Source of the DNA: Candidatus Poribacteria bacterium
GTDB lineage: Bacteria; Poribacteria; WGA-4E; PCPOR2b
NCBI GenBank assembly: GCA_965218095.1
Contig: OZ244587.1
Span: forward strand, 1,824,001-1,888,000
DNA: 64,000 nucleotides
Reading direction: 5' to 3'
This document shows, one piece after another, positions 39,794 through 64,000 of this stretch. The translations under genes were made by a program, and so were the position numbers. Each line of letters begins with the position of its first letter. Within the stretch, counting starts at the first letter, position 1. The notes under the pieces are model-generated. The model was not told where the DNA came from. It made no database searches and saw nothing but the letters and a program-made list of their open reading frames with translations.

Positions 39794-40605
39794 GGTTCTG
39801 TTGACATTTGAGTATAAGGTTGTGGCATAATAGAAGAATGACGCCAATAACCTTACCTGATGAACAATGGAATAAGATATACCGGTTTCTTCTTAGCTGT
39901 CCCACCATCTATGTTGGCGACGAAGCTGTCCTGTGGGTGACTCGTAGCGGGGCTCAATGGAGACTTCTACCAGACACCTATGGCAAATGGAACACCCGCT
40001 ACAAGCGGTTTGCTCGATGGTGCGACAAAGGTATCTTCACACAGATGCACCCCCACTTTGCCTCTGACCCCGATATCGAGTCGCTTATTGTGGACAGTAC
40101 CATCTCCCGTCTGCGGCGGGTTGCGGCGGGTGCCTTAAAAAGCTGGCGCCTTAAAAAAAACGGTGGCACTGAAAACCAAGCATTAGGTCGGTCTCGGGGC
40201 GGTTTCAGTACAAAAATTCACATCACCGTTGACGGACTAGGCAATCCCCTAAGAATTCATCTGACACCCGGTCAGAGACATGACATAACTGAGGCGGAAG
40301 GGTTGATAATCGGATATAACAGTGAATATGTGATTGGAGACAAGGGGTACGATTCGGACGCTTTTATCGCGGTTATTGAGGCGAATGGAGCGATTGCGGT
40401 GATACCGCCAAAAAGTCATCGTGTTAACCAAAGAACGTATGACAAACACTTATACAAAGAGAGACATCGGGTTGAATGTTTCATCAACAAGATAAAATGG
40501 TATCGCCGCATCTTCTCTCGGTTTGAGAAGCTAGCTGTCCGTTATTTTGGATTTCTCAGCTTTGTCTCCACTCTTATATGGCTCCCTTGAAATGTCAACA
40601 GAACC
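39794..40605 (+). mobile_element. IS5-family (IS427-like) element, copy 1, with a 24-bp in-frame deletion
   Basis: TIR GGTTCTGTTGACATTT/AAATGTCAACAGAACC, TA duplication; transposase [24 protein letters not shown]. Confidence 0.95.
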
Positions 40606-50191: not shown

Positions 50192-51027
50192 GGTTCTGTT
50201 GACATTTGAGTATAAGGTTGTGGCATAATAGAAGAATGACGCCAATAACCTTACCTGATGAACAATGGAATAAGATATACCGGTTTCTTCTTAGCTGCCC
50301 CACCATCTATGTTGGCGACGAAGCTGCTACACGCCGCTTCGTCGAAGCGGTTCTGTGGGTGACTCGTAGTGGGGCTCAATGGAGACTTCTACCAGACACC
50401 TATGGCAAATCGAACACCCGCTACAAGCGGTTTGCTCGATGGTGCGACAAAGGTATCTTCACACAGATGCACCCCCACTTCGCCTCTGACCCCGATATCG
50501 AGTCGCTTATTGTGGACAGTACCATCTGCCGCGCTCACCCGTCTGCGGGGGGCGCCTTAAAAAGCTGGCGCCTTAAAAAAAACGGTGGCACTGAAAACCA
50601 AGCATTAGGTCGGTCTCGGGGCGGTTTCAGTACAAAAATTCACATCACCGTTGACGGACTAGGCAATCCCCTAAGAATTCATCTGACACCCGGTCAGAGA
50701 CATGACATAACTGAGGCGGAAGGGTTGATAATCGGATATAACAGTGAATATGTGATTGGAGACAAGGGGTACGATTCGGACGCTTTTATCGCCGTTATTG
50801 AGGCGAATGGAGCGATTGCGGTGATACCGCCAAAAAGTCATCGTGTTGACCAAAGAACGTATGACAAACGCTTATACAAAGAGAGACATCGGGTTGAATG
50901 TTTCATCAACAAGATAAAATGGTATCGTCGTATCTTCTCTCGGTTTGAGAAGCTAGCTGTCCGTTATTTTGGATTTCTCAGCTTTGTCTCCACTCTTATA
51001 TGGCTCCCTTGAAATGTCAACAGAACC
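50192..51027 (+). mobile_element. IS5-family (IS427-like) element, copy 2, full length
   Basis: Near-identical to 39794-40605; same TIRs, TA duplication; single ORF 50206-51012. Confidence 0.95.
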
Positions 51028-53833: not shown

Positions 53834-55756
53834 TTAGGCATTCCGAAAATCAAGCATTGCTTGCCGATACGCCTCCGGCACCCCGATATCAAAGCGCCTC
53901 CCTTTGACGAGGTAACCAGAGAACTGATCTTCTTTCCGCAACTTATCCAGACAAGAGGTCAACTGAAACTCGCCGTGCTCGCGAAAATTATGGGTGATGT
54001 TTTCTTCCAGGTAGTCAAAGATCTGCGGCGTCAAAACATACATACCAAACACAGTGAGGAAATGATCTGCGTCCATCCCATCCACATGAAGATGCTGTCG
54101 GGCATACTCTGCATCGGGCTTTTCGTAGAACTCTGTTACTGAAAGGATCGAGTCCGGCTCCTGCCAGGCGCCGGTCACACAACCGAAGTGGTGAAGTTTA
54201 TCTACATGTGTGACCTTCAACCCGACTACGCTATGCCCGACACGATCATAGATATCCAGCAGTTGCCTTGTGCATGAAATCTCATTATCGGACGCATAGA
54301 GGTGGTCTCCCAGCATGAGCAGAAACGGTTCACCATTTACCCATTTTTGCGCACAAAAGACAGCGTGTCCGAATCCATCCTGAACGTCTTGTGTGACAAA
54401 CGAAATGCGACATCCCAAGTTCATCAGGTGCCGGCAATATTCTTGATCTTCCTTCGACAGTTTGTTGAAATTCTCGATTGCCGGCGGCGTCTTGAAGAAC
54501 TCTTCGAAGAGTTCCCGATCCCTGCTTTGCACAACAAGGCAGACCTCTTCAATTCCAGCATTGATTGCTTCTTCGACGATTGCCATAATGACGGGCTTGG
54601 GTCTACCGTCTCGGTCAATGATAGGGAAAAGCTCCTTCTTGATTGCCTTCGATGCGGGAAATAAACGAGTACCAAACCCCGCAGCCGGGATAACCGCTTT
54701 TCGCACACGCCGTCCCGCCTGAATGACCAGCTTTAAGCAAGACATCTTCAGGTCTCGCTCTATGATTTCGATGACCTTCTGCTGGCTCTCCTCATCTTTA
54801 ACGATAAATTGCGCGGAGCCATCTCCCTGCGATCCAACCCCTTTCCCGCCTAATATGTACGGCTGAATCAGCGCGTAGTTGAGGACTTTGTGAAGCACGG
54901 GGGCAGTCAACTGCAACGGACAGGCAGGTTGAAGGTGCGTATCGAATTCCGCCTGTGCCTTTTTCATCAATTCTCCAACGCTGGCTGCATCCCCTTGGTG
55001 CAACGCTTCGTGTGCTTCGTGGGTTATATTCGCACTGATTGGGCCCAGATATTTCTGGACGTTCCTTTGCATCTTGTTCTCAGCAAAGGGATAACAGTGG
55101 TTCAGTTGATTCAGTATCTCCCGCGTATCCTTACCCGCACCCAGATCGACGATAACGAAATGCAGGTCTTTCGGCACGTTGATCTCTTCGACATCGATCC
55201 GGTCCCCGTCAAAGGTCATCATGATAGGGCGACTCCCATACGCGCAGCCTTGATCCATCCGACCACAACGGGAAGGCGTAGTGATCTCGCCGATGTAGGC
55301 ATACTCCATTTCACCACGGACGGTCATTTTCAGGTCATAAACGCGGTTGAACCCGCGCGCAACAAGAACACAGATCGCCGCGCTTGATGAGAGGCCCTTC
55401 TTAACGGGAAGGTCGGTGAGGTAATTATCGATCTCCAGACCATGCACATGGTAGTGCATCAGAATTTGGTAGGCGACACCAGCGGCATAACTGAAAAAGC
55501 CCCCCTTTTCTGCTTCGGCAAGCAGCGTGTCACTTTCCATGGGCAATTCAAATGGTCCCTCGCGTGTGCCGTCACTCAGTGTGGTACGTAAAATCAGCTT
55601 GGTTGGATGAGGCTGCACTTCGGCATAAAGCCCTTGATTGGTGCCGGTGATGATTGTGTACCCTTTTTCTAAATCGGCGTTGGTACGACGATAGCCGCCG
55701 GCCCAATCGCTATGCTCACCAAAGAGACAGATACGTCCGGGCACAAAAATCCTCAT
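53834..55756 (-). CDS. Bifunctional GHMP sugar kinase / GalU-like sugar-1-phosphate nucleotidyltransferase
   Basis: PGRICLFGEHSD, PVKKGLSSSAA, GRMDQ; then KAVIPAAGFGTRLFPASKAIKKEL, GFGHAV, LGD, EKP, FDIG. Confidence 0.9.
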   Translation of the reverse strand: MRIFVPGRICLFGEHSDWAGGYRRTNADLEKGYTIITGTNQGLYAEVQPHPTKLILRTTLSDGTREGPFELPMESDTLLAEAEKGGFFSYAAGVAYQILMHYHVHGLEIDNYLTDLPVKKGLSSSAAICVLVARGFNRVYDLKMTVRGEMEYAYIGEITTPSRCGRMDQGCAYGSRPIMMTFDGDRIDVEEINVPKDLHFVIVDLGAGKDTREILNQLNHCYPFAENKMQRNVQKYLGPISANITHEAHEALHQGDAASVGELMKKAQAEFDTHLQPACPLQLTAPVLHKVLNYALIQPYILGGKGVGSQGDGSAQFIVKDEESQQKVIEIIERDLKMSCLKLVIQAGRRVRKAVIPAAGFGTRLFPASKAIKKELFPIIDRDGRPKPVIMAIVEEAINAGIEEVCLVVQSRDRELFEEFFKTPPAIENFNKLSKEDQEYCRHLMNLGCRISFVTQDVQDGFGHAVFCAQKWVNGEPFLLMLGDHLYASDNEISCTRQLLDIYDRVGHSVVGLKVTHVDKLHHFGCVTGAWQEPDSILSVTEFYEKPDAEYARQHLHVDGMDADHFLTVFGMYVLTPQIFDYLEENITHNFREHGEFQLTSCLDKLRKEDQFSGYLVKGRRFDIGVPEAYRQAMLDFRNA

Positions 55757-56001
55757 TATTTTGACTCCAACTTGTGTTATCTTCTCTAGTGTACGATAGG
55801 CTCCCTGACGAGATCTGATTTGAAAGAGATTTGAGAAAATCGATACAATCACGCAGAAATCAGGCTTCTCATGGGGAATTTCTAGAGGCTCTAAAAATCC
55901 GTGTCCTCTCTCAAAGAATATGGTATAACACCGTCATTATACGGATTGGAACACAAAATACAAGAACGAAATCCATGAAAGAAACGAAAGGAGAAAGTAC
56001 C

Positions 56002-56307
56002 ATGGCGAAGGTCGCGCTAGACCAAGTATTGGAGCAAGTGAAGATGTTGATGCTGGATGAGAAGCGTCAGTTGCGGCAAATGTTGGATGATCTATTGGAA
56101 TCATCTCCTCCAGAATCACTTGAGGAAGAGCTCGCACGAAGACTTCAAAAGGCCGGGCTAATTATCACTAGACCTCCCCCTATCACCGATTTCACGCCTT
56201 ATCAAAACCGCAAATTGGTTAAAGTTAAAGGAAAACCGGTGTCCGAGGTTCTCATTGAAGATCGTGATAAATGGCAGCATATTTCTTCGACAGCAGTGCG
56301 CTTGTGA
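56002..56307 (+). CDS. VapB-like antitoxin with probable C-terminal frameshift
   Basis: AAGGAG RBS; ends GKPVSEVLIEDR, typical of VapB-like tails, then reads into vapC. Confidence 0.6.
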   Translation: MAKVALDQVLEQVKMLMLDEKRQLRQMLDDLLESSPPESLEEELARRLQKAGLIITRPPPITDFTPYQNRKLVKVKGKPVSEVLIEDRDKWQHISSTAVRL

Positions 56308-56640
56308 AACGCTACATAAGTGAGATTGGTTCGGCACGGGTTATGGGCATCACAGGCCCTGCGACGGACAACTCCATCCATATTGTGCGCATTACGGGGG
56401 CAGAAGCGGGTTGGACGGAGTAGCAATATCTCTGTGACCGAAGCAACCAATGCCATTTCGGACTTTCGCCATGATTTCACCAATGGGTATCACATCGTCG
56501 AAGTTTACATCTGGGCTGATTCAGCACGCCATGACCTTAGCCGAGACACATGCCTCATGTGGTTACGATGCTGTGCAGTTAGCCGCGGCTTTGACGGATC
56601 TTATCACCAAAACCTCACCAGCATTGTAGATTTTTTTTGT
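56271..56640 (+). pseudogene. vapC: VapC PIN-domain toxin
   Basis: MAAYFFDSSALVKRY...; GYDAVQLAAAL appears later in another frame; several frameshifts. Confidence 0.82.
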
Positions 56641-56676: not shown

Positions 56677-56799
56677 TTGTCTGAATCGCGGATTGTTGCA
56701 GATTTATGGATTTCGCGAATTAAGGCTTTCGCCGGTACAGGTTTTAATCCGCGAAATCCGCGAAATCCGCGTTATCCGTTTAATTCGCGATTCTGATAA
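56677..56799. repeat. MITE-like repeat with internal 9-bp AATCCGCGA iterations
   Basis: TTGTCTGAATCGCGGATT ... AATTCGCGATTCTGATAA; related halves near 60930, 11205 and 17212. Confidence 0.7.
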
Positions 56800-56820: not shown

Positions 56821-59800
56821 TCAAAACTGGACGCCCGCAAAGAATCCGGGCCAAACACAAATGGTTACATCGACATCGTCCGGTCGGACCACGTGGCCGA
56901 ATCCGTATCCAAAATCCGAAGTGTCCTGTCTATCTGAGACGAGGAGGTTGAGCGAAATCCCACCAAAGACACTAAACCACTTGTGCTGTTCCCAGCCGAC
57001 TGCGAAGCGTAGTTTGTTCAAGAGGCTGTGTTCATCCTCCCACCAGTCATCCCAATCCCAATCATCGGTATAAAGCACCGGGCGAATCGTGGCATCAACG
57101 TTGAGAAAAAGTCGCTTACCGAGTGGAATATGCCCACCCATACCAAACCCCCACGACCATCTGCCCAAATCGCCGTGTGGATAACTGCCGACCACGAACA
57201 GGCTATAAACGTGTCGGCTACCGAGACGAATCCCAAGGTTTGCAACCTCCGTATCGCTACCCCACAATTGCAGGTGCAGTGGATTGTCCCTAACAAAGCT
57301 GATTAATCCGATCGGGATGCCGGACATCCGTCTGGAGACGTTGAGAAGCCCTACCTGCGACGTTCCCACATGTCCAGCGATATTGAGAAGTCCAATCTGT
57401 GTCCCAATCCCACCGGGCGCAATATTGACCATGCTAATCTGTGTGCCGGCAGTCGAGATGCCCGCGTTTTGGTGCCAGCCAAGCGCGATATTGCTGATTA
57501 GGCTGAGTTGCATCCCCTCCAAATGCCCGGTAATGTTACCGCCGACTGCGGTTTGTAGACTTCGACCTTGCACATTCCCTCCGACGAAGTTCAGTCCGCC
57601 GGCTGCCTGCCAGCCGCGAAGGTCGCGGGCGACGAGATTACCCCCGACTGCGGCTTGAACTCCCCGCGCACCTCCACCGACCACATTGCCGCCTCCTACC
57701 ACTTGGAAGCCGTCAAGGTTGCCGCCGCTAACGTTGAGACCCACCGAGGCTTGGAAACCCTCCACGTTTCTGCCGGCGATGTTGGCACCGATTGCGGCTT
57801 GTAGACCGCGACTTAGCACATTCTCTCCGACGAGGTTTAGTCCGTAGGCGATCTGCAAACCCTGAAAGTTGCGCGCTGCAAAATTACCCCCGATAGCGGC
57901 TTGAATGCCTCGCACACTTCCACCGGCAGCATTGACCCCTACTGCCGCTTGAAAGCCATCAAGGTCGCCGCCGATGGCATTGAGACCACCCGAGGCTTGG
58001 AAACCCTCCACGTTTCTGCCGACAGTGTTGAACCCGGTTGAGACTTGAAAACCATCTACATTTCCACCGACGATATTGCCCACCCCAGCAAATTGCGCGC
58101 CCCGCGCTTCAAGGCCCTTCATGTTCAAAACCCCTCCCAATTCGATGCCATCAAGTTTCGTATGATAGCCCGCAATGATGTTGAGGGAAAGGTTCGTTGT
58201 GACATTGCGGTTGAGGGCACGAACTCCGACAGTGCTTATCCACGGAATCAGTGAAATCGTCACAGGCAGATGCAAATCGCTATCTTTTGCGGTTCGCGGC
58301 ACAACACCACCATCCTTCTCTAAAGGGGAGAAGGGTTCTAAGTCGCGGGTGGGTTGAGGTGGAGGAACCTGGGTAATTCGGGGGGGCAATCCCTCATTGT
58401 TGATTACCGGCGGATCAATCCCTTGGTGGTTCAGCAGTGAGATATATTTCCCGTTATAAAAAACACGGGGTGTAATCTGCTGTGGGTAGCGTAGCTCATC
58501 GGACAGGTGGGAATGCCATTCCTCGATGCCGCGTGTCACATAATCCAACAGCCCCAACACCGTGACGGTCCCATCGGGGCTCGCTGCGCCCCGGTCTTGA
58601 TAGTCACCGCTCAACCCTTTGAGCAGGAAGTAGGTGAACAGCCCATGTTTCAGTCGCGGAACTTCAGGCGCCCACTGGTTGCTATCACACGCAGTGAAGA
58701 TGATGTTACTCTCTTCACTATAACGTGACAACGCCGCAACAAAGTGCTCCTTCGGTGCTACCCGACACGCATCGACGATGACAAAACGGTGTTTCGCGTT
58801 TGCGCGATTGAGAATCGCAAACAGATTTTCGAGACTCAGTCCACTGTCCACGAGTGGATCGGTGACATCCATCGGCAGAAAGTAACCTGTTCCATCGACA
58901 TCCTCTCCATGCCCGGAGAGATAAACGGTCAGCAGATCTACCGCTTCAAGCTGAGCGTGTCGTTGGAGCTGCTCAATCACATTCGCCTTCGTCGGCTGAA
59001 TCAGGCTATCGGGTGTCATCAACGTCACATTGACGCCTGCGTCTTGGAACACCTGCGCGACCGCTTTGGCATCATCAGCGGCATACTTGAGCGACTGGAA
59101 GGGGGACGGATAGGCATCCACACCGATAACAACCGCCCAATGTCGCATATTGACACCGCTCGCAGCCCCCAGCTGGAAATTACCACCACCGGCAAGAGCC
59201 AACGCCCGCTGACTCACCTCTATCGTCTGCCCTTTTATCGTCGTGAGGGTTAATGTTTTCTCCTGCTCCACCATCAAGTCGGTAGGGAGAAACGTCTCAT
59301 CGAAGCGGTTTTCTGGGCCCTCAAGGACAGGTTGCCACGCCAGATTCCACTGTTTGTGGTCGTTCTGGACGTGCTGAACGAGTTGTCGGTACGTCAGTTT
59401 GTCGTGCCGTTGCGCCCCAATCGCCTGATTTGCAGGACTTAGCAAGTGGGAGAACATCCGCCGATAGAGGGAATAGGTCATCGCGCTGACAGGTAGATAG
59501 GTTTTGCCAATCGGGATGCGTAGTTCGTGAACGACTTGATTGTAGGCAGCAGCCGCCAGCAGTAGTGCAAAATCAGCGGATTCATCTAAGATGTCCTCCG
59601 TATGGCTTACAGTCTGGGTAGGTTGAACGTTTGCCGTTGGGGTATCCGTCACCGGCGTGCCTTTGGGTCGTCCCAGACGAATCTCTCGGAGTATATCGCC
59701 GGAGTAGCATGTGTCGATAATGCAGGAAACCTCCCGCGTCGGAAGCTCTTGGAGTAAGATGTTGAGTTCATCATCCAGCAGGTACGTCTTTGGCGATGCC

Positions 59801-60225
59801 AGATTTGCGTCCACAGGCAATAGGGCTTCGTCGTTCCTATCCGGATATCGCCCCTTCGCTTCATCGCCCGGAAAAGTTCCGAGTTTGTCAATAATCTGCG
59901 TCCCGTGTCCGCTAAAATAGAAAAGCAGGCTATCAGAAGGGGTCAGGCGTCGGCTGAGTTCTCGAAATTTACGCTGAATCTGCGCCTTATTCGGATTGGT
60001 CAGGATGTGCATCTGCGTCTGTGTGACGCCGTGCGTAGAGAGGACCGCTTCCATCAGCTTCAAGTCGTTTGGCGGAGCGTCAAGCTGCAAGTTTGGATTT
60101 GCATAGTCCCAAACACCCACCAGGATGGCGTGTTGCTCGGCGTGGGCAAACTGTGAAAACATCACGAAAAGACTAAAGACCGGAAGCACCCATCGAATCG
60201 TTGACCCCAAGCTATTTTGAGACAT
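56821..60225 (-). CDS. Exported protein with two caspase-like (peptidase C14) domains, Gly-rich 16-aa repeats and a probable outer-membrane beta-barrel C-terminus
   Basis: Signal peptide (AHA-E); domain 1 FSGHG/DTCYSG; domain 2 LSGHG/DACR with HGLFT; GxQxxxGxN repeats; amphipathic beta strands ending in F. Confidence 0.88.
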   Translation of the reverse strand: MSQNSLGSTIRWVLPVFSLFVMFSQFAHAEQHAILVGVWDYANPNLQLDAPPNDLKLMEAVLSTHGVTQTQMHILTNPNKAQIQRKFRELSRRLTPSDSLLFYFSGHGTQIIDKLGTFPGDEAKGRYPDRNDEALLPVDANLASPKTYLLDDELNILLQELPTREVSCIIDTCYSGDILREIRLGRPKGTPVTDTPTANVQPTQTVSHTEDILDESADFALLLAAAAYNQVVHELRIPIGKTYLPVSAMTYSLYRRMFSHLLSPANQAIGAQRHDKLTYRQLVQHVQNDHKQWNLAWQPVLEGPENRFDETFLPTDLMVEQEKTLTLTTIKGQTIEVSQRALALAGGGNFQLGAASGVNMRHWAVVIGVDAYPSPFQSLKYAADDAKAVAQVFQDAGVNVTLMTPDSLIQPTKANVIEQLQRHAQLEAVDLLTVYLSGHGEDVDGTGYFLPMDVTDPLVDSGLSLENLFAILNRANAKHRFVIVDACRVAPKEHFVAALSRYSEESNIIFTACDSNQWAPEVPRLKHGLFTYFLLKGLSGDYQDRGAASPDGTVTVLGLLDYVTRGIEEWHSHLSDELRYPQQITPRVFYNGKYISLLNHQGIDPPVINNEGLPPRITQVPPPQPTRDLEPFSPLEKDGGVVPRTAKDSDLHLPVTISLIPWISTVGVRALNRNVTTNLSLNIIAGYHTKLDGIELGGVLNMKGLEARGAQFAGVGNIVGGNVDGFQVSTGFNTVGRNVEGFQASGGLNAIGGDLDGFQAAVGVNAAGGSVRGIQAAIGGNFAARNFQGLQIAYGLNLVGENVLSRGLQAAIGANIAGRNVEGFQASVGLNVSGGNLDGFQVVGGGNVVGGGARGVQAAVGGNLVARDLRGWQAAGGLNFVGGNVQGRSLQTAVGGNITGHLEGMQLSLISNIALGWHQNAGISTAGTQISMVNIAPGGIGTQIGLLNIAGHVGTSQVGLLNVSRRMSGIPIGLISFVRDNPLHLQLWGSDTEVANLGIRLGSRHVYSLFVVGSYPHGDLGRWSWGFGMGGHIPLGKRLFLNVDATIRPVLYTDDWDWDDWWEDEHSLLNKLRFAVGWEQHKWFSVFGGISLNLLVSDRQDTSDFGYGFGHVVRPDDVDVTICVWPGFFAGVQF

Positions 60226-60889
60226 TGTGCGCTCCTTTCGTAAAATTTTCCAGCAGTTCTAAAAAACGCCGCTGCTCGAGCGATAGCTTCTCCGCCAAGG
60301 CGTCGCGCTCAACGGTGGTAAGCGAACCCAATTTGAGTCGAGATTGGTAGAGTTCGACCAGTTTGACGTGCATCGCGAGGTCTTCGGGATGCATCTTCAA
60401 AAACGTTTCAACCGCTTCGATTGAGGCGGCGAGTTGTCCTGCGTTCGTTGGTTCGGGCACAATGAGAAACTCCAACATCCCCTCCGCTGAGAGGGGCGGG
60501 GGCCCCGTATTTTCACCGCCCTTTCGTGCGCCCCACTCTATCGACAGATTGAGCGGGGAGAAAATCGACACAGCGAACATCAAAATCACCACCGCGCCTG
60601 CCGCCGAAGGCACCCACAACGGTATCCGCATTCCAAACCACTTCCGGATGCGCGTCCAAAATGACGGTTGCTCAAGTGGCGGCACCTGTGGTGCTTTCAT
60701 CGGAAAGTGTCCAGCTCGGACGGCTGCCCCGAGGTCGTGCAGCGATTTTTCTGTCTCTTGCAAAATTGTATGTCTCCGCTCGCATGCTTCACATTTGAGA
60801 AGATGGGCGCGGATGGGTTTCGATGCGCGAGCGGACAAATCTTTATCAATGTAGTGGAGCAGTTTTTTCTGCACACGACTGCATTTCAT
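60212..60889 (-). CDS. Zinc-binding (zf-HC2/ZAS) transmembrane anti-sigma factor
   Basis: HLLKCEAC (HxxxCxxC), one TM helix, about 100-aa extracytoplasmic domain; overlaps the caspase gene by 14 bp. Confidence 0.88.
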   Translation of the reverse strand: MKCSRVQKKLLHYIDKDLSARASKPIRAHLLKCEACERRHTILQETEKSLHDLGAAVRAGHFPMKAPQVPPLEQPSFWTRIRKWFGMRIPLWVPSAAGAVVILMFAVSIFSPLNLSIEWGARKGGENTGPPPLSAEGMLEFLIVPEPTNAGQLAASIEAVETFLKMHPEDLAMHVKLVELYQSRLKLGSLTTVERDALAEKLSLEQRRFLELLENFTKGAHNVSK

Positions 60890-61211: not shown

Positions 61212-63527
61212 TTAAAACGTCATCGTCACACCGAGATAGGGAAAGAACGGCAATTGATGGAATGCCTCCTTTTCGATGGACGCATTGGAGTTCAACTCGC
61301 GGGTGTACTCGCGTCGGTAGGAAAACTCAAGGACGTTCTTGTGGTTATAGACGTTGAACAATTCGAGGAAAACCCCCATCTGCCAACAGTTGAAGATGAA
61401 CGACTTTTTGATGCGGATGTCGAGCCGATGAAACGGGGGCACGCGCAACGAATTGACCTCGCCCAAGATGGGGACATTAGAAACCACTATCACCTCACCG
61501 TATATCGCATCCGTTTTCTGCACCTTACGCTCCTCGAAGTCGATCGTGGGCGTGTACGGATTCCCTGTCGAATAGCGCCATTTTACACCGATCTCCCATG
61601 TGGGCGACAGATTGTAACTTCCCACGAGTGTTGCCACATGCGTCTGATCGAAAGAGTAAAGGTGCATGGGGGCGTCGGGATGTTCGCGCCGCCGCGAGCG
61701 TGAATAGGCGTAACTGAGAAAGCCGAAGAACCGCTTGCCTTGACGATGCCGCAGAAGAACCTCCGCCCCCCGTGCAAACCCTTCGCCCTGATTGAGATAT
61801 TTCGACACGTTATCCGTCATGATGATTTTGTCAAGGTCTTTGTAATAGCCCGCGAATTTCAAGTGGATTGATGGCGAAATCTTCCGCTCGACTTCGAGAA
61901 CGTAGTGCGTAGCAGTACTCGATTTGACATTGGGGTTACCGATGTCGGGCAAAATGTACCGCGGTTGTGGTCCCTGATTGTATTGTCCATACAAGAGGCG
62001 AATTTCTGACCTGTCTGACACCTGAAATTGGAGACTTGCCCGTGGGCCGACCGATAGCTCGTCCGTGGAGTTCAAATAGGTGGGCCGAACCCCAAACGCG
62101 GCGGAGACGAAAGGAACGGGAGTGTATCGGGCTTGCAGATAACTTTCGAGATGCGTAAAACGTCGCGACAAGTCCAGTTTTTCCAACTTATCTTCATCTA
62201 ATTCAACACCTGCAAAGAACGAGAAATCTTCGTCAAACCTGTCAGGGTCGGAGAGGAGACTCGATACGCTCCTGACCCCGCTTGAAAAGAGGACGCCTGA
62301 CTCTAGTTGATACCTCGAATTCAATTTGTAAATCAAGTCCTCACGAAGTTGATACGTCGGCTGGTCGTCTTGAAAGAAAAAATAAGTTGCATCATCCACA
62401 CCGTGTGCGACTCGGGAGAGGTTATAAGACCGGGAGAGTGTCAAATTTGAGGTGAGTCGATCGGTGAGATGGGAGCGAAGATGAATCCCCTGAGCATTGA
62501 ACCCGTTCTTATAAGAATAGTACTCAAGTTCAGCACCTTCCTCAAACTCCGCTTCAATATTGAAGAAGTCGCTCGTGGCAAACGCATTGAAGGTTAGCTG
62601 ATGCTTCTCGCCCAGGTCATAGCTGAACTGCGCCTGATAGTCCCAAAAACGCGGGAATGCCGTATTCGGGCCCAGTTCCTCATCCGCATCCAGATTAATC
62701 AACAACGGCAGCAACAGGTCAAGATAACTCCGCCGCCCTGCAACATACCACGCGCCACGAGCCCCGATTGGCCCTTCCACCATCCCCTCGGAATAGAGCA
62801 TGTTGATATTGAACTTGCCCGCGACTCGCTCCTGATTGCCATGCCGCGAGTGGATGTCAATAACCGCCTGTGCATCCGAGCCAAATTCCGCACCGAACCC
62901 ACCGGCGTAGACGTCTATCCGCTTGATAACCTCGGTACTGATGGTGGAGACGATTCCGAAGAAATGGTATGGATAGCCTATCGGTAAGCGGTCGAAATAA
63001 AAAACGTTATCTTCCGGGGCACCGCCGCGAATGTAAAGCGAACCGTCGAAATCGTTGGCAACAATGACCCCCGGCAACGATGGCAATGCCCGCAACGCAT
63101 CGCCCGCTGTCCCTGGCATCCGCTTGATTTCAAGGCTTTGCAGACTCTCCTGACTCACTGTCGCCGGAAATCGCTCTGCCGTCACAGGCACTTCCTGCAA
63201 CAAAAGAATTCGTTCAAGGTAGATTTCGACTTCCGTGACTTCTCCCGGCTTGACGGTGGCGGTCGTCTGGTCTGCCAAGCGATAGCCTTCTGCTGAAATG
63301 CTGAACGTATACTCACCCGGCCGCAGGTTTTCAAACCGAAATTTGCCTGCCAAATTTGTCACTGTCTCTTGATTGACCTCCCGCAAGCGAACCTGCGCCG
63401 AAGTGATATGGTCACGGCTGCCTTGCCTGTAAACCGTTCCGAAAACCTCGCCCGTTTCACCTGCGAACGAAACAGGAATGACGGACAGATACAAACTTAT
63501 CGTCAATATCAACATGCGGTGTTTCAC
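61212..63527 (-). CDS. TonB-dependent receptor with N-terminal carboxypeptidase-regulatory-like domain
   Basis: Signal peptide; plug LPSLPGV...IRGG...NVFYFD...GGFGAEFG; barrel ending FNVYN...LGVTMTF. Confidence 0.93.
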   Translation of the reverse strand: MKHRMLILTISLYLSVIPVSFAGETGEVFGTVYRQGSRDHITSAQVRLREVNQETVTNLAGKFRFENLRPGEYTFSISAEGYRLADQTTATVKPGEVTEVEIYLERILLLQEVPVTAERFPATVSQESLQSLEIKRMPGTAGDALRALPSLPGVIVANDFDGSLYIRGGAPEDNVFYFDRLPIGYPYHFFGIVSTISTEVIKRIDVYAGGFGAEFGSDAQAVIDIHSRHGNQERVAGKFNINMLYSEGMVEGPIGARGAWYVAGRRSYLDLLLPLLINLDADEELGPNTAFPRFWDYQAQFSYDLGEKHQLTFNAFATSDFFNIEAEFEEGAELEYYSYKNGFNAQGIHLRSHLTDRLTSNLTLSRSYNLSRVAHGVDDATYFFFQDDQPTYQLREDLIYKLNSRYQLESGVLFSSGVRSVSSLLSDPDRFDEDFSFFAGVELDEDKLEKLDLSRRFTHLESYLQARYTPVPFVSAAFGVRPTYLNSTDELSVGPRASLQFQVSDRSEIRLLYGQYNQGPQPRYILPDIGNPNVKSSTATHYVLEVERKISPSIHLKFAGYYKDLDKIIMTDNVSKYLNQGEGFARGAEVLLRHRQGKRFFGFLSYAYSRSRRREHPDAPMHLYSFDQTHVATLVGSYNLSPTWEIGVKWRYSTGNPYTPTIDFEERKVQKTDAIYGEVIVVSNVPILGEVNSLRVPPFHRLDIRIKKSFIFNCWQMGVFLELFNVYNHKNVLEFSYRREYTRELNSNASIEKEAFHQLPFFPYLGVTMTF

Positions 63528-63601: not shown

Positions 63602-64000
63602 CTAATCCCCAAAGAAATAGGACGCCAAGCATGTTGCGAGTTGTCCCCTTGCATGATGGAGACGACTTTTCACCGTCCCCTGCCGGATGCCGAGCCGTTT
63701 GGCAATCTTTTTTTCCGGGAGTTCCTCGACGTAGAATAGCCAGACCACCTGTTGATGAATAAGGGGAAGTTCCGAGATGGCGTCCCGAACGACCGTCAAC
63801 TTTTCTTGAAAGAGGACGTGTGTCTCCGGTGCGCGGGAATCTGATGGTATCTGCCCAGCCTCAAAATTTTCGTCGTCAAGGCTACCGAGTGCATGTCTGG
63901 CAGCAGTGCCTTGACGACGCGACCAGTTCCGAACCACATTTTTGGCAATCTCGTGTAGCCACGCCAGAAACGCCGCTTCGGATCTGTCCCTGACCGTCTC
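63602..64000 (-). CDS. ECF sigma-70 factor (5' end outside window)
   Basis: Region 2 FLAWLHEIAKNVVRNW; region 4 IAKRLGIRQGTVKSRLHHAR. Confidence 0.92.
   Translation of the reverse strand, partial: ETVRDRSEAAFLAWLHEIAKNVVRNWSRRQGTAARHALGSLDDENFEAGQIPSDSRAPETHVLFQEKLTVVRDAISELPLIHQQVVWLFYVEELPEKKIAKRLGIRQGTVKSRLHHARGQLATCLASYFFGD

Follow-up and report, generated by a model that had tools for sequence, protein, structure and literature searches.

What does a bacterial protein do that carries two intact caspase domains on a repeat stalk and a membrane-type barrel? The function of bacterial caspases is a long-open question, and few of them have a known substrate. We report an analysis of such a protein, 1134 amino acids (aa) long and encoded in a 64,000-nucleotide stretch of a Candidatus Poribacteria genome (assembly GCA_965218095.1, contig OZ244587.1, positions 1,824,001 to 1,888,000); this whole stretch is the window, in which coordinates are counted from its first letter. 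An earlier note on this DNA had read the protein as an enzyme displayed on the cell surface, possibly acting on proteins of a sponge host. Action on host proteins is unsupported, and the gene is the last one of an operon for a sigma factor of the extracytoplasmic function (ECF) type and an anti-sigma factor, with which the protein very probably acts. It probably represents trans-envelope sigma signalling in a new form and is better read as a signalling system than as a surface effector. Specifically, we lean towards a receptor equipped with a site-1 protease of its own, i.e. periplasmic caspases would cut the anti-sigma factor at a Lys|Gly bond and thereby release the sigma factor.

The operon and its conserved gene order

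The operon in the window comprises:

63602..64000, (-): ECF sigma factor, 3' part (TIGR02937, E 2.2e-18; Sigma70_r4_2, E 2.3e-13)
61212..63527, (-): TonB-dependent receptor (TBDR) with CarboxypepD_reg and Plug domains
60212..60889, (-): predicted single-pass zinc-binding (HxxxCxxC) anti-sigma factor (ZAS), 225 aa (zf-HC2, E 4.3e-5, above cut-off)
56821-60225, (-): open reading frame (ORF) of the double-caspase protein, 1134 aa

The stop of the anti-sigma gene overlaps the start of the caspase gene by 14 nt, and the 5' end of the sigma gene and its promoter lie outside the window (the ORFs of its relatives are 179-187 aa). The hydrophobic segment of the anti-sigma factor starts at residue 99 (Kyte-Doolittle (KD) value 2.16) and the periplasmic part is predicted to be a small helical domain, for which the ESM Atlas gives TPR-like leads only (0.80).

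A genome scan with one pattern, the last strand of the barrel, returned 30 loci (numbered from L001; L030, a weak 39-aa match, was excluded from the synteny counts), and because the pattern is this strand the neighbouring genes were not selected for. Double-caspase proteins, 67-81% identical to the query, are encoded at 18 of the 30 loci, all of them Candidatus Poribacteria, and the order sigma factor - TBDR - ZAS - double caspase is found in all 18. The sigma gene is 71-81% identical throughout, every locus has the ZAS gene, and the TBDR, likewise present in 18/18, shares 68% identity with its L013 counterpart and 37-39% with those of the remaining 17. Moreover, a promoter-like motif, TGAACC-N14-AACAC, lies 5' of the sigma gene in the 18 double-caspase loci and in none of the 14 others; an AAC at -35 is typical for ECF sigma factors, as is autoregulation (PMC8103513). 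The one match to this motif in the window, inside a gene, was equalled in 9 of 100 shuffles and was taken as chance.

At the distant loci (Polyangia, Myxococcota and Deltaproteobacteria among them) the sigma gene is followed by genes for an 'ActD-like' membrane protein and for a single caspase on the same tail (7/7), with starts and stops that overlap or abut. Two Persicobacter replicons, the only two of six plasmid matches that span the full STN-type query, encode a sigma factor, FecR and then a stalk-barrel protein (2/2), with CarboxypepD in both and an STN match in Pfam in L032 only. The Poribacteria operon joins a sigma factor, a membrane anti-sigma factor and an outer-membrane protein, as in TonB-dependent cell-surface signalling; Pfam detected no STN domain in its TBDR, and its anti-sigma factor is of the zf-HC2 and not of the FecR type. 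The caspase module would work like TonB-dependent cell-surface signalling and is not a member of it. The TBDR of the operon is likely regulon output and possibly a co-sensor.

The TBDR at 61212-63527 diverges from those of L001-L016, L021 and L029, L013 excepted, while the sigma factor and the caspase stay 67-81% identical, and to judge from these identities it appears to have been exchanged in place within the operon. An extra gene of 115-127 aa with a lipobox-like VLGGC, absent from the window, lies between the sigma and TBDR genes in 11 of the 18 loci (e.g. L002:3309-3659) and has no Pfam, NCBIfam or PADLOC match. In one distant locus (L022:5827-6537) a second ActD-like C-terminal domain is encoded 5' of the sigma gene.

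Two caspase domains of different type

The N-terminal half of the protein has the following parts:

60139..60225, (-): predicted signal peptide of the Sec type, residues 1-29 (the N-terminus is hydrophobic and has an AxA-type site)
59281..60138, (-): caspase domain 1, metacaspase-like (H107/C173; S1 acids D54/D171; R186-P-K188-G189 as the loop after the Cys)
58414..59151, (-): caspase domain 2, orthocaspase/paracaspase-like (H439/C487, S1 acids D385/D485, without the RxKG loop)
58276..58413, (-): Pro-rich variable linker, residues about 605-650 (low identity bins)

The homologue search gave 169 matches from 7996 scored candidates; counts "of 121" for this protein refer to the query aligned with the best 120 of the 169 matches, which are 60-97% identical. 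The N-terminus is hydrophobic in 117/121, and the site in the query is AHA|E30. Peptidase_C14 (PF00656, Pfam) matches two stretches (E 3.7e-36, above cut-off), and the protein belongs to peptidase family C14 with its p20 fold and His-Cys dyad. Both dyads, H107/C173 (FSGHG...DTC) and H439/C487 (LSGHG...DAC), are intact, as the earlier note had seen: the four residues are conserved in 118, 119, 121 and 121 of 121, respectively, and the misses are all gaps, with no substitution. That the two domains are of different type was also confirmed. Domain 1, which has the GDE...DEALLPVD stretch, matches PDB metacaspases (best E 5.5e-6), and domain 2 matches MALT1 weakly (E 0.009) and the PADLOC caspase model (E 2.1e-34). 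With no more than 32% identity across 88 aa, the two did not arise by a recent duplication. For the EACC1-associated caspase model (NF047832) the query scored 113.6 bits, below the cut-off of 140.

The aspartate pairs D54/D171 (placed by alignment to AtMC9) and D385/D485 (placed by motif) are conserved in the alignment, and both domains thereby have the two S1 aspartates (equivalents of TbMCA2 D95/D211) that mark C14B. Such aspartates have been tied to basic P1 specificity (PMC6426788, section 17), and the sequences suggest that both domains have Arg/Lys-type pockets. In the linker bins the identity to the query is 0.67-0.73, compared with 0.88-0.98 in the domain 2 bins. The double-caspase form extends beyond the close clade, as seen in the sequence of the N-truncated homologue P0203 (784 aa, 44% identical), which retains a portion of domain 1 together with domain 2 and the tail. 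A single-sequence fold of the full-length protein had a predicted local distance difference test (pLDDT) value of 33, and this model was discarded.

Stalk, barrel and orientation in the envelope

The C-terminal tail consists of:

57286..58272, (-): parallel beta-helix stalk of LA_2272-like repeats with variable copy number (model and EtpA alignment)
56821..57276, (-): 8-stranded amphipathic outer-membrane-type beta-barrel, residues 984-1134 (model and structural alignment)

The beta-solenoid of 16-aa repeats and the membrane-type barrel ending in Phe that had been proposed for this region were both borne out. Self-identity of the sequence is highest at periods 16 (0.25) and 32 (0.21; other lags 0.04-0.17), residues 693-963 contain 17 rungs of the G/S/T-x-Q/E...N type, and the homologues have 6-14 repeats each (regex count). 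With the LA_2272 surface repeat model (NF047436, cut-off 25 bits) the query scored 21.6 bits and a headless Poribacteria paralogue (L017) 45.4 bits. Residues 652-1134, modelled with a 150-sequence alignment, gave a mean pLDDT of 89.4 and a predicted template modelling score (pTM) of 0.68. In this model the segment 652-980 can be superposed on parallel beta-helices (EtpA, Z 20.9, root-mean-square deviation (rmsd) 2.9, 313 residues aligned), and the fold also resembles Vag8 and Ag43, i.e. secreted adhesins or passengers. The barrel aligns with OprF (Z 14.1, rmsd 3.8, 126 aligned), NspA (Z 13.6, rmsd 3.3, 137 aligned) and OmpW (Z 12.3, rmsd 3.6, 133 aligned), with lower Z for soluble avidin-type barrels (9.5-9.9). 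Most of its strands alternate between hydrophobic and polar faces, and the C-terminus is GFFAGVQF in 104/121. The tail-family profile gave one match to PDB sequences at E 0.1, an unrelated one and none to a solved barrel, and the likeness to 8-stranded barrels of the OmpA/OprF/OmpW type (amphipathic strands, loops and turns on opposite ends, terminal aromatic) is structural only. From the model we infer insertion into the outer membrane.

The long variable loops of the barrel (1053-66, 14 aa; 1098-1120, 23 aa) share one end. At the opposite end are the near-constant turns 1003-5 and 1082-3 (2-3 aa) and a more variable 4-aa turn, and the C-terminal Phe and the stalk entry lie on this short-turn end. 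The turn end of outer-membrane barrels is periplasmic, and eight strands are too narrow to pass a passenger. Because the stalk joins the barrel at the turn end and a passenger would not fit through eight strands, the stalk and the caspases are most likely periplasmic, a placement of the caspase domains that the model lets us propose with good confidence. The predicted outer loop L3 (residues 1053-1066; 57028-57069, (-)) carries an acidic-aromatic patch, TDDWDWDDWWEDEH, which ranks with the protein's most variable regions and is a candidate ligand-binding surface.

Exchangeable heads on a shared tail

The tail has matches in 4356 clusters (50% identity). Among the matches listed there are 149 new relatives, 76 of which are at least 540 aa long; 69 of these were scanned with Pfam, the other 7 long and all 73 short relatives being outside the scan. 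The heads found in the 69 are caspase (43), STN (16), FecR_C only (1), CarboxypepD only (3) and none (6). In the ESM Atlas the tail matches Bacteroidota/Balneolota clusters at 0.96, and a further lead, a cluster with STN in 43% and FecR_C in 28%, matches at 0.82. STN domains are periplasmic and bind the anti-sigma factor in cell-surface signalling (PMC11637429); STN heads on the same stalk-barrel therefore support the periplasmic topology independently of the model. Judged by these domain matches, STN and caspase are interchangeable heads on one stalk-barrel.

Poribacteria also have a headless stalk-barrel paralogue of 424-429 aa (L017-L020, e.g. L017:8869-10152), near a DUF481 barrel gene. 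A sigma gene is absent near all four of these copies.

A candidate Lys-Gly cleavage site

60518..60523, (-): K123-G124 of the anti-sigma factor, putative site-1 cleavage site predicted from conservation

This position lies 11 residues past the membrane helix of the anti-sigma factor. K123 is conserved in 120/121 and G124 in 118/121, and the flanking residues 121, 122, 125 and 126 are variable. The ActD-like proteins have RxKG after the helix in 113/120, behind a highly variable linker, and show no profile homology to the Poribacteria anti-sigma factor (Prob 5.9%); Lys-Gly just outside the membrane is retained in both of these anti-sigma families. No KG is present within 45 aa past the helix in either Persicobacter FecR (n=2). 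On the protease side, RxKG is found downstream of the catalytic Cys in 46/47 single caspases, and K188-G189 of the RPKG loop after the Cys is retained in 119/121 copies of domain 1. Metacaspases self-process in the loop after the catalytic Cys. Taken as sequence patterns, these data make the KG motif suggestive as a cut site. A complex prediction for residues 30-604 with anti-sigma residues 112-225 had a score of 0.00, which counts neither way.

Proposed mechanism

In the mechanism that we propose, Sec would export the protein and the 8-stranded barrel, the fold of which is modelled, would settle in the outer membrane. The beta-helix (about 20 rungs, estimated at roughly 100 A) and the linker would suspend the caspases in the periplasm toward the inner membrane, as the topology and the STN swaps suggest, and the neighbouring zinc anti-sigma factor would, from its domain and synteny, keep the ECF sigma factor of the operon at the inner membrane. 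A signal at the outer loops of the barrel, the stalk or the TonB receptor may then activate the caspases. Activation would probably involve a processing step in domain 1 at its RPK|G loop, and domain 2, which lacks this loop, may be the activator. Because the RxKG loop is in domain 1 only, a one-chain caspase cascade is plausible on sequence grounds. By analogy with RseA, FecR/FoxR and DdvA, the Arg/Lys-specific caspase would cut the anti-sigma factor at K123|G124, an RseP-type protease would complete the release, and the freed sigma factor would switch on its own operon, TonB receptor included. That the caspase is the site-1 protease of the anti-sigma factor is, on the sequence evidence, somewhat favoured. 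Tentatively, the stalk-barrel may represent an undescribed class of TonB-independent outer-membrane receptors with swappable periplasmic heads: a two-caspase zymogen cascade cutting ZAS at Lys|Gly in Poribacteria, STN for FecR in Bacteroidota and one caspase for ActD-like proteins in myxobacteria.

Several observations weigh against this reading. KG is one of 34 dipeptides that are conserved at ≥90% among the aligned Poribacteria anti-sigma factors and one of 13 such dipeptides among the ActD-like proteins, the dipeptide EL is likewise common to both, and 6.5% of random 25-aa windows contain KG. In Poribacteria the site reads G-x-x-K-G and lacks the Arg that the ActD family has at P3, and RxKG in the ActD-like proteins abuts a folded domain and may have a structural role. 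With respect to the barrel, Foldseek found nothing at E <= 0.001 with the tail model (OprF and OmpW ranked first), loop L1 (991-994) is short despite its outer-side position, and the barrel is short-looped and has neither a plug nor a TonB box, which leaves the crossing of the signal unexplained. Finally, the 18 loci from Poribacteria are closely related and non-independent, the promoter motif was derived from the same 18 loci in which it was counted, and the distant evidence comprises 7 loci from one C-terminal pattern and 2 STN-type loci.

Alternative explanations

The protein could be an output and not an input of the system, i.e. a periplasmic caspase-barrel produced as part of the regulon and cutting other proteins of the envelope (in maturation, quality control or self-damage defence), the anti-sigma factor being processed by housekeeping proteases. 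We consider this unlikely. Its gene is the last one behind an autoregulation-type promoter, domain 2 matches the PADLOC caspase model as given above, and Haliangium PCaspase, also encoded beside a sigma gene, cuts broadly and causes abortive infection (10.1101/2023.06.23.546230). However, the caspase fills the slot taken by the anti-sigma-binding STN on the same stalk-barrel, KG is present in caspase-linked anti-sigma factors and not in the two FecRs, and a non-systematic look through the ORF lists shows no evident CRISPR/CBASS-type neighbour.

Quite improbable, in our judgement, is a tether or brake, in which the caspases would bind the KG loop as a pseudo-substrate and shield the anti-sigma factor until a signal breaks the contact, with catalysis serving self-release or resetting. 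As long as there is no signal, the STN of FoxA does protect FoxR, and it is clipped itself (PMC11637429), and STN and caspase heads are interchangeable; yet conservation extends to all four catalytic residues and to the S1 acids, and K-G in an exposed linker suits a substrate equally well.

Surface display by an autotransporter-like route, with caspases acting on sponge proteins, is very improbable: although the stalk has the fold of secreted adhesins and passengers (EtpA, Vag8, Ag43), the NCBIfam name of the repeats is 'surface repeat' and the genome scan found double-caspase loci in Poribacteria only, a passenger would not fit through a barrel of 8 strands and about 150 aa, the stalk enters at the short-turn end, the same stalk-barrel bears periplasmic STN heads in 16/69 relatives, and the same operon logic recurs in myxobacterial-type genomes.

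Relation to known systems

The receptor with a built-in site-1 protease that we favour resembles in plan FecA/FecR/FecI and FoxA/FoxR/FoxI, which likewise have an outer-membrane receptor with a periplasmic N-terminal head, a single-pass anti-sigma factor and an ECF sigma factor in one operon, and in which proteolytic cleavage of the anti-sigma factor is the switch (PMC11637429), as proposed here. The Bacteroidota form of the stalk-barrel family even has STN and FecR. In contrast, the head here sits on an 8-stranded barrel and a beta-helix instead of a 22-stranded plugged barrel, the anti-sigma factor is of the ZAS type, the TBDR of the operon is without an STN match, and the head is itself a protease, whereas the Fox site-1 protease is described as unknown (PMC11637429).

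DdvA/DdvS of Myxococcus xanthus also combines a ZAS anti-sigma factor, a membrane helix and a periplasmic caspase-fold protease proposed to act as site-1 protease before RseP (PMC11506125; PMC6061681), and ECF54 has CHAT neighbours (PMC8999054). In DdvA, however, the TPR-CHAT part is inside the anti-sigma factor, whereas here the C14 caspases are a separate, outer-membrane-anchored gene product; the 225-aa anti-sigma factor has no CHAT match in Pfam and is not of the DdvA TPR-CHAT type, and no CRISPR/CBASS island is evident in the ORF lists, again without a systematic scan. A protease with the caspase fold also cleaves either a sigma-binding protein or a sigma factor in Craspase (Csx29/Csx30/RpoE, type III-E) and in SAVED-CHAT/PCaspase/PCc-sigma (type III-B), and type III-B has a cascade of two proteases (10.1101/2022.08.17.504292; 10.1101/2023.06.23.546230). 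Both systems are located in the cytoplasm and respond to RNA or cyclic oligoadenylate, whereas the present protein would be exported and anchored in a membrane, its two proteases forming a single chain. The C-terminal domain of some Csx30 proteins is DUF4384 (10.1101/2022.08.17.504292), which is weakly matched by one of the four ActD-like proteins scanned (E 6.5e-4).

Four metacaspase operons with sigma factors were reported in M. xanthus in 2012, and others in Anaeromyxobacter, Haliangium, Sorangium, Ralstonia and Fibrobacter (Asplund-Samuelsson 2012; PMC3501461, section 13). They probably include the single-caspase form found here; that section gives no mechanism, anti-sigma factor, barrel, location, double-caspase form or ZAS form. 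In a literature search with subscription papers mostly outside its range we found no account of the stalk-barrel family, the head swaps or the double-caspase form, and nothing relevant to LA_2272 or ActD was among the matches listed. The supplement of the ECF re-classification (PMC7826278), the group tables of which may be elsewhere, does not contain 'caspase', 'Peptidase_C14', 'PF00656' or 'Poribacteria'.

With classical (type Va) autotransporters the protein has in common the signal peptide, an enzyme head, a beta-helix and a C-terminal barrel ending in Phe. The type Va barrel has 12 strands in about 250-300 aa. Here the barrel (residues 984-1134) has 8 strands, the model shows no pore linker helix, Pfam gives no Autotransporter match at E 0.1 and the head is most likely periplasmic, and the autotransporter layout of the earlier note was not upheld. 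Nor is the barrel of the trimeric type, in which a 4-strand anchor follows a coiled coil: it has 8 strands with no helix before them and no YadA_anchor match. An autotransporter barrel is absent among the 50 VIA rows for the tail, which by itself excludes nothing.

If the stalk-barrel is a receptor class with swappable heads, as tentatively put forward above, many bacterial caspases would be dedicated site-1 proteases of sigma signalling and not death proteases. The proposed mechanism would give cell-surface signalling a built-in site-1 protease and define a receptor class without a TonB barrel. The prediction offers a named substrate, a bond (K123|G124; RxK|G in ActD-like proteins) and a sigma-promoter readout, and both purified domains and those culturable myxobacteria that have ActD-like genes would lend themselves to testing it. 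It also redirects the reading of a host-directed effector of a sponge symbiont toward signalling.

Other features of the window

Directly past the caspase stop, at 56707-56778, there are short tandem repeats of the AATCCGCGA type (5 matches in the window, 0.42 expected), possibly a REP-like (repetitive extragenic palindromic) or terminator element. At 56002-56423 (+) a small ORF is followed by a 50-aa ORF starting MAAYFFDSSALVKRY that ends early; neither has a Pfam match, and we take the pair to resemble an antitoxin and a truncated PIN-domain gene. Two near-identical transposase copies of the IS4/IS5 insertion sequence families lie at 39808-40590 and 50206-51012, the first being shorter by 8 codons. 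Finally, 53834-55852 (-) encodes a GHMP kinase fused to a GalU-like nucleotidyltransferase.

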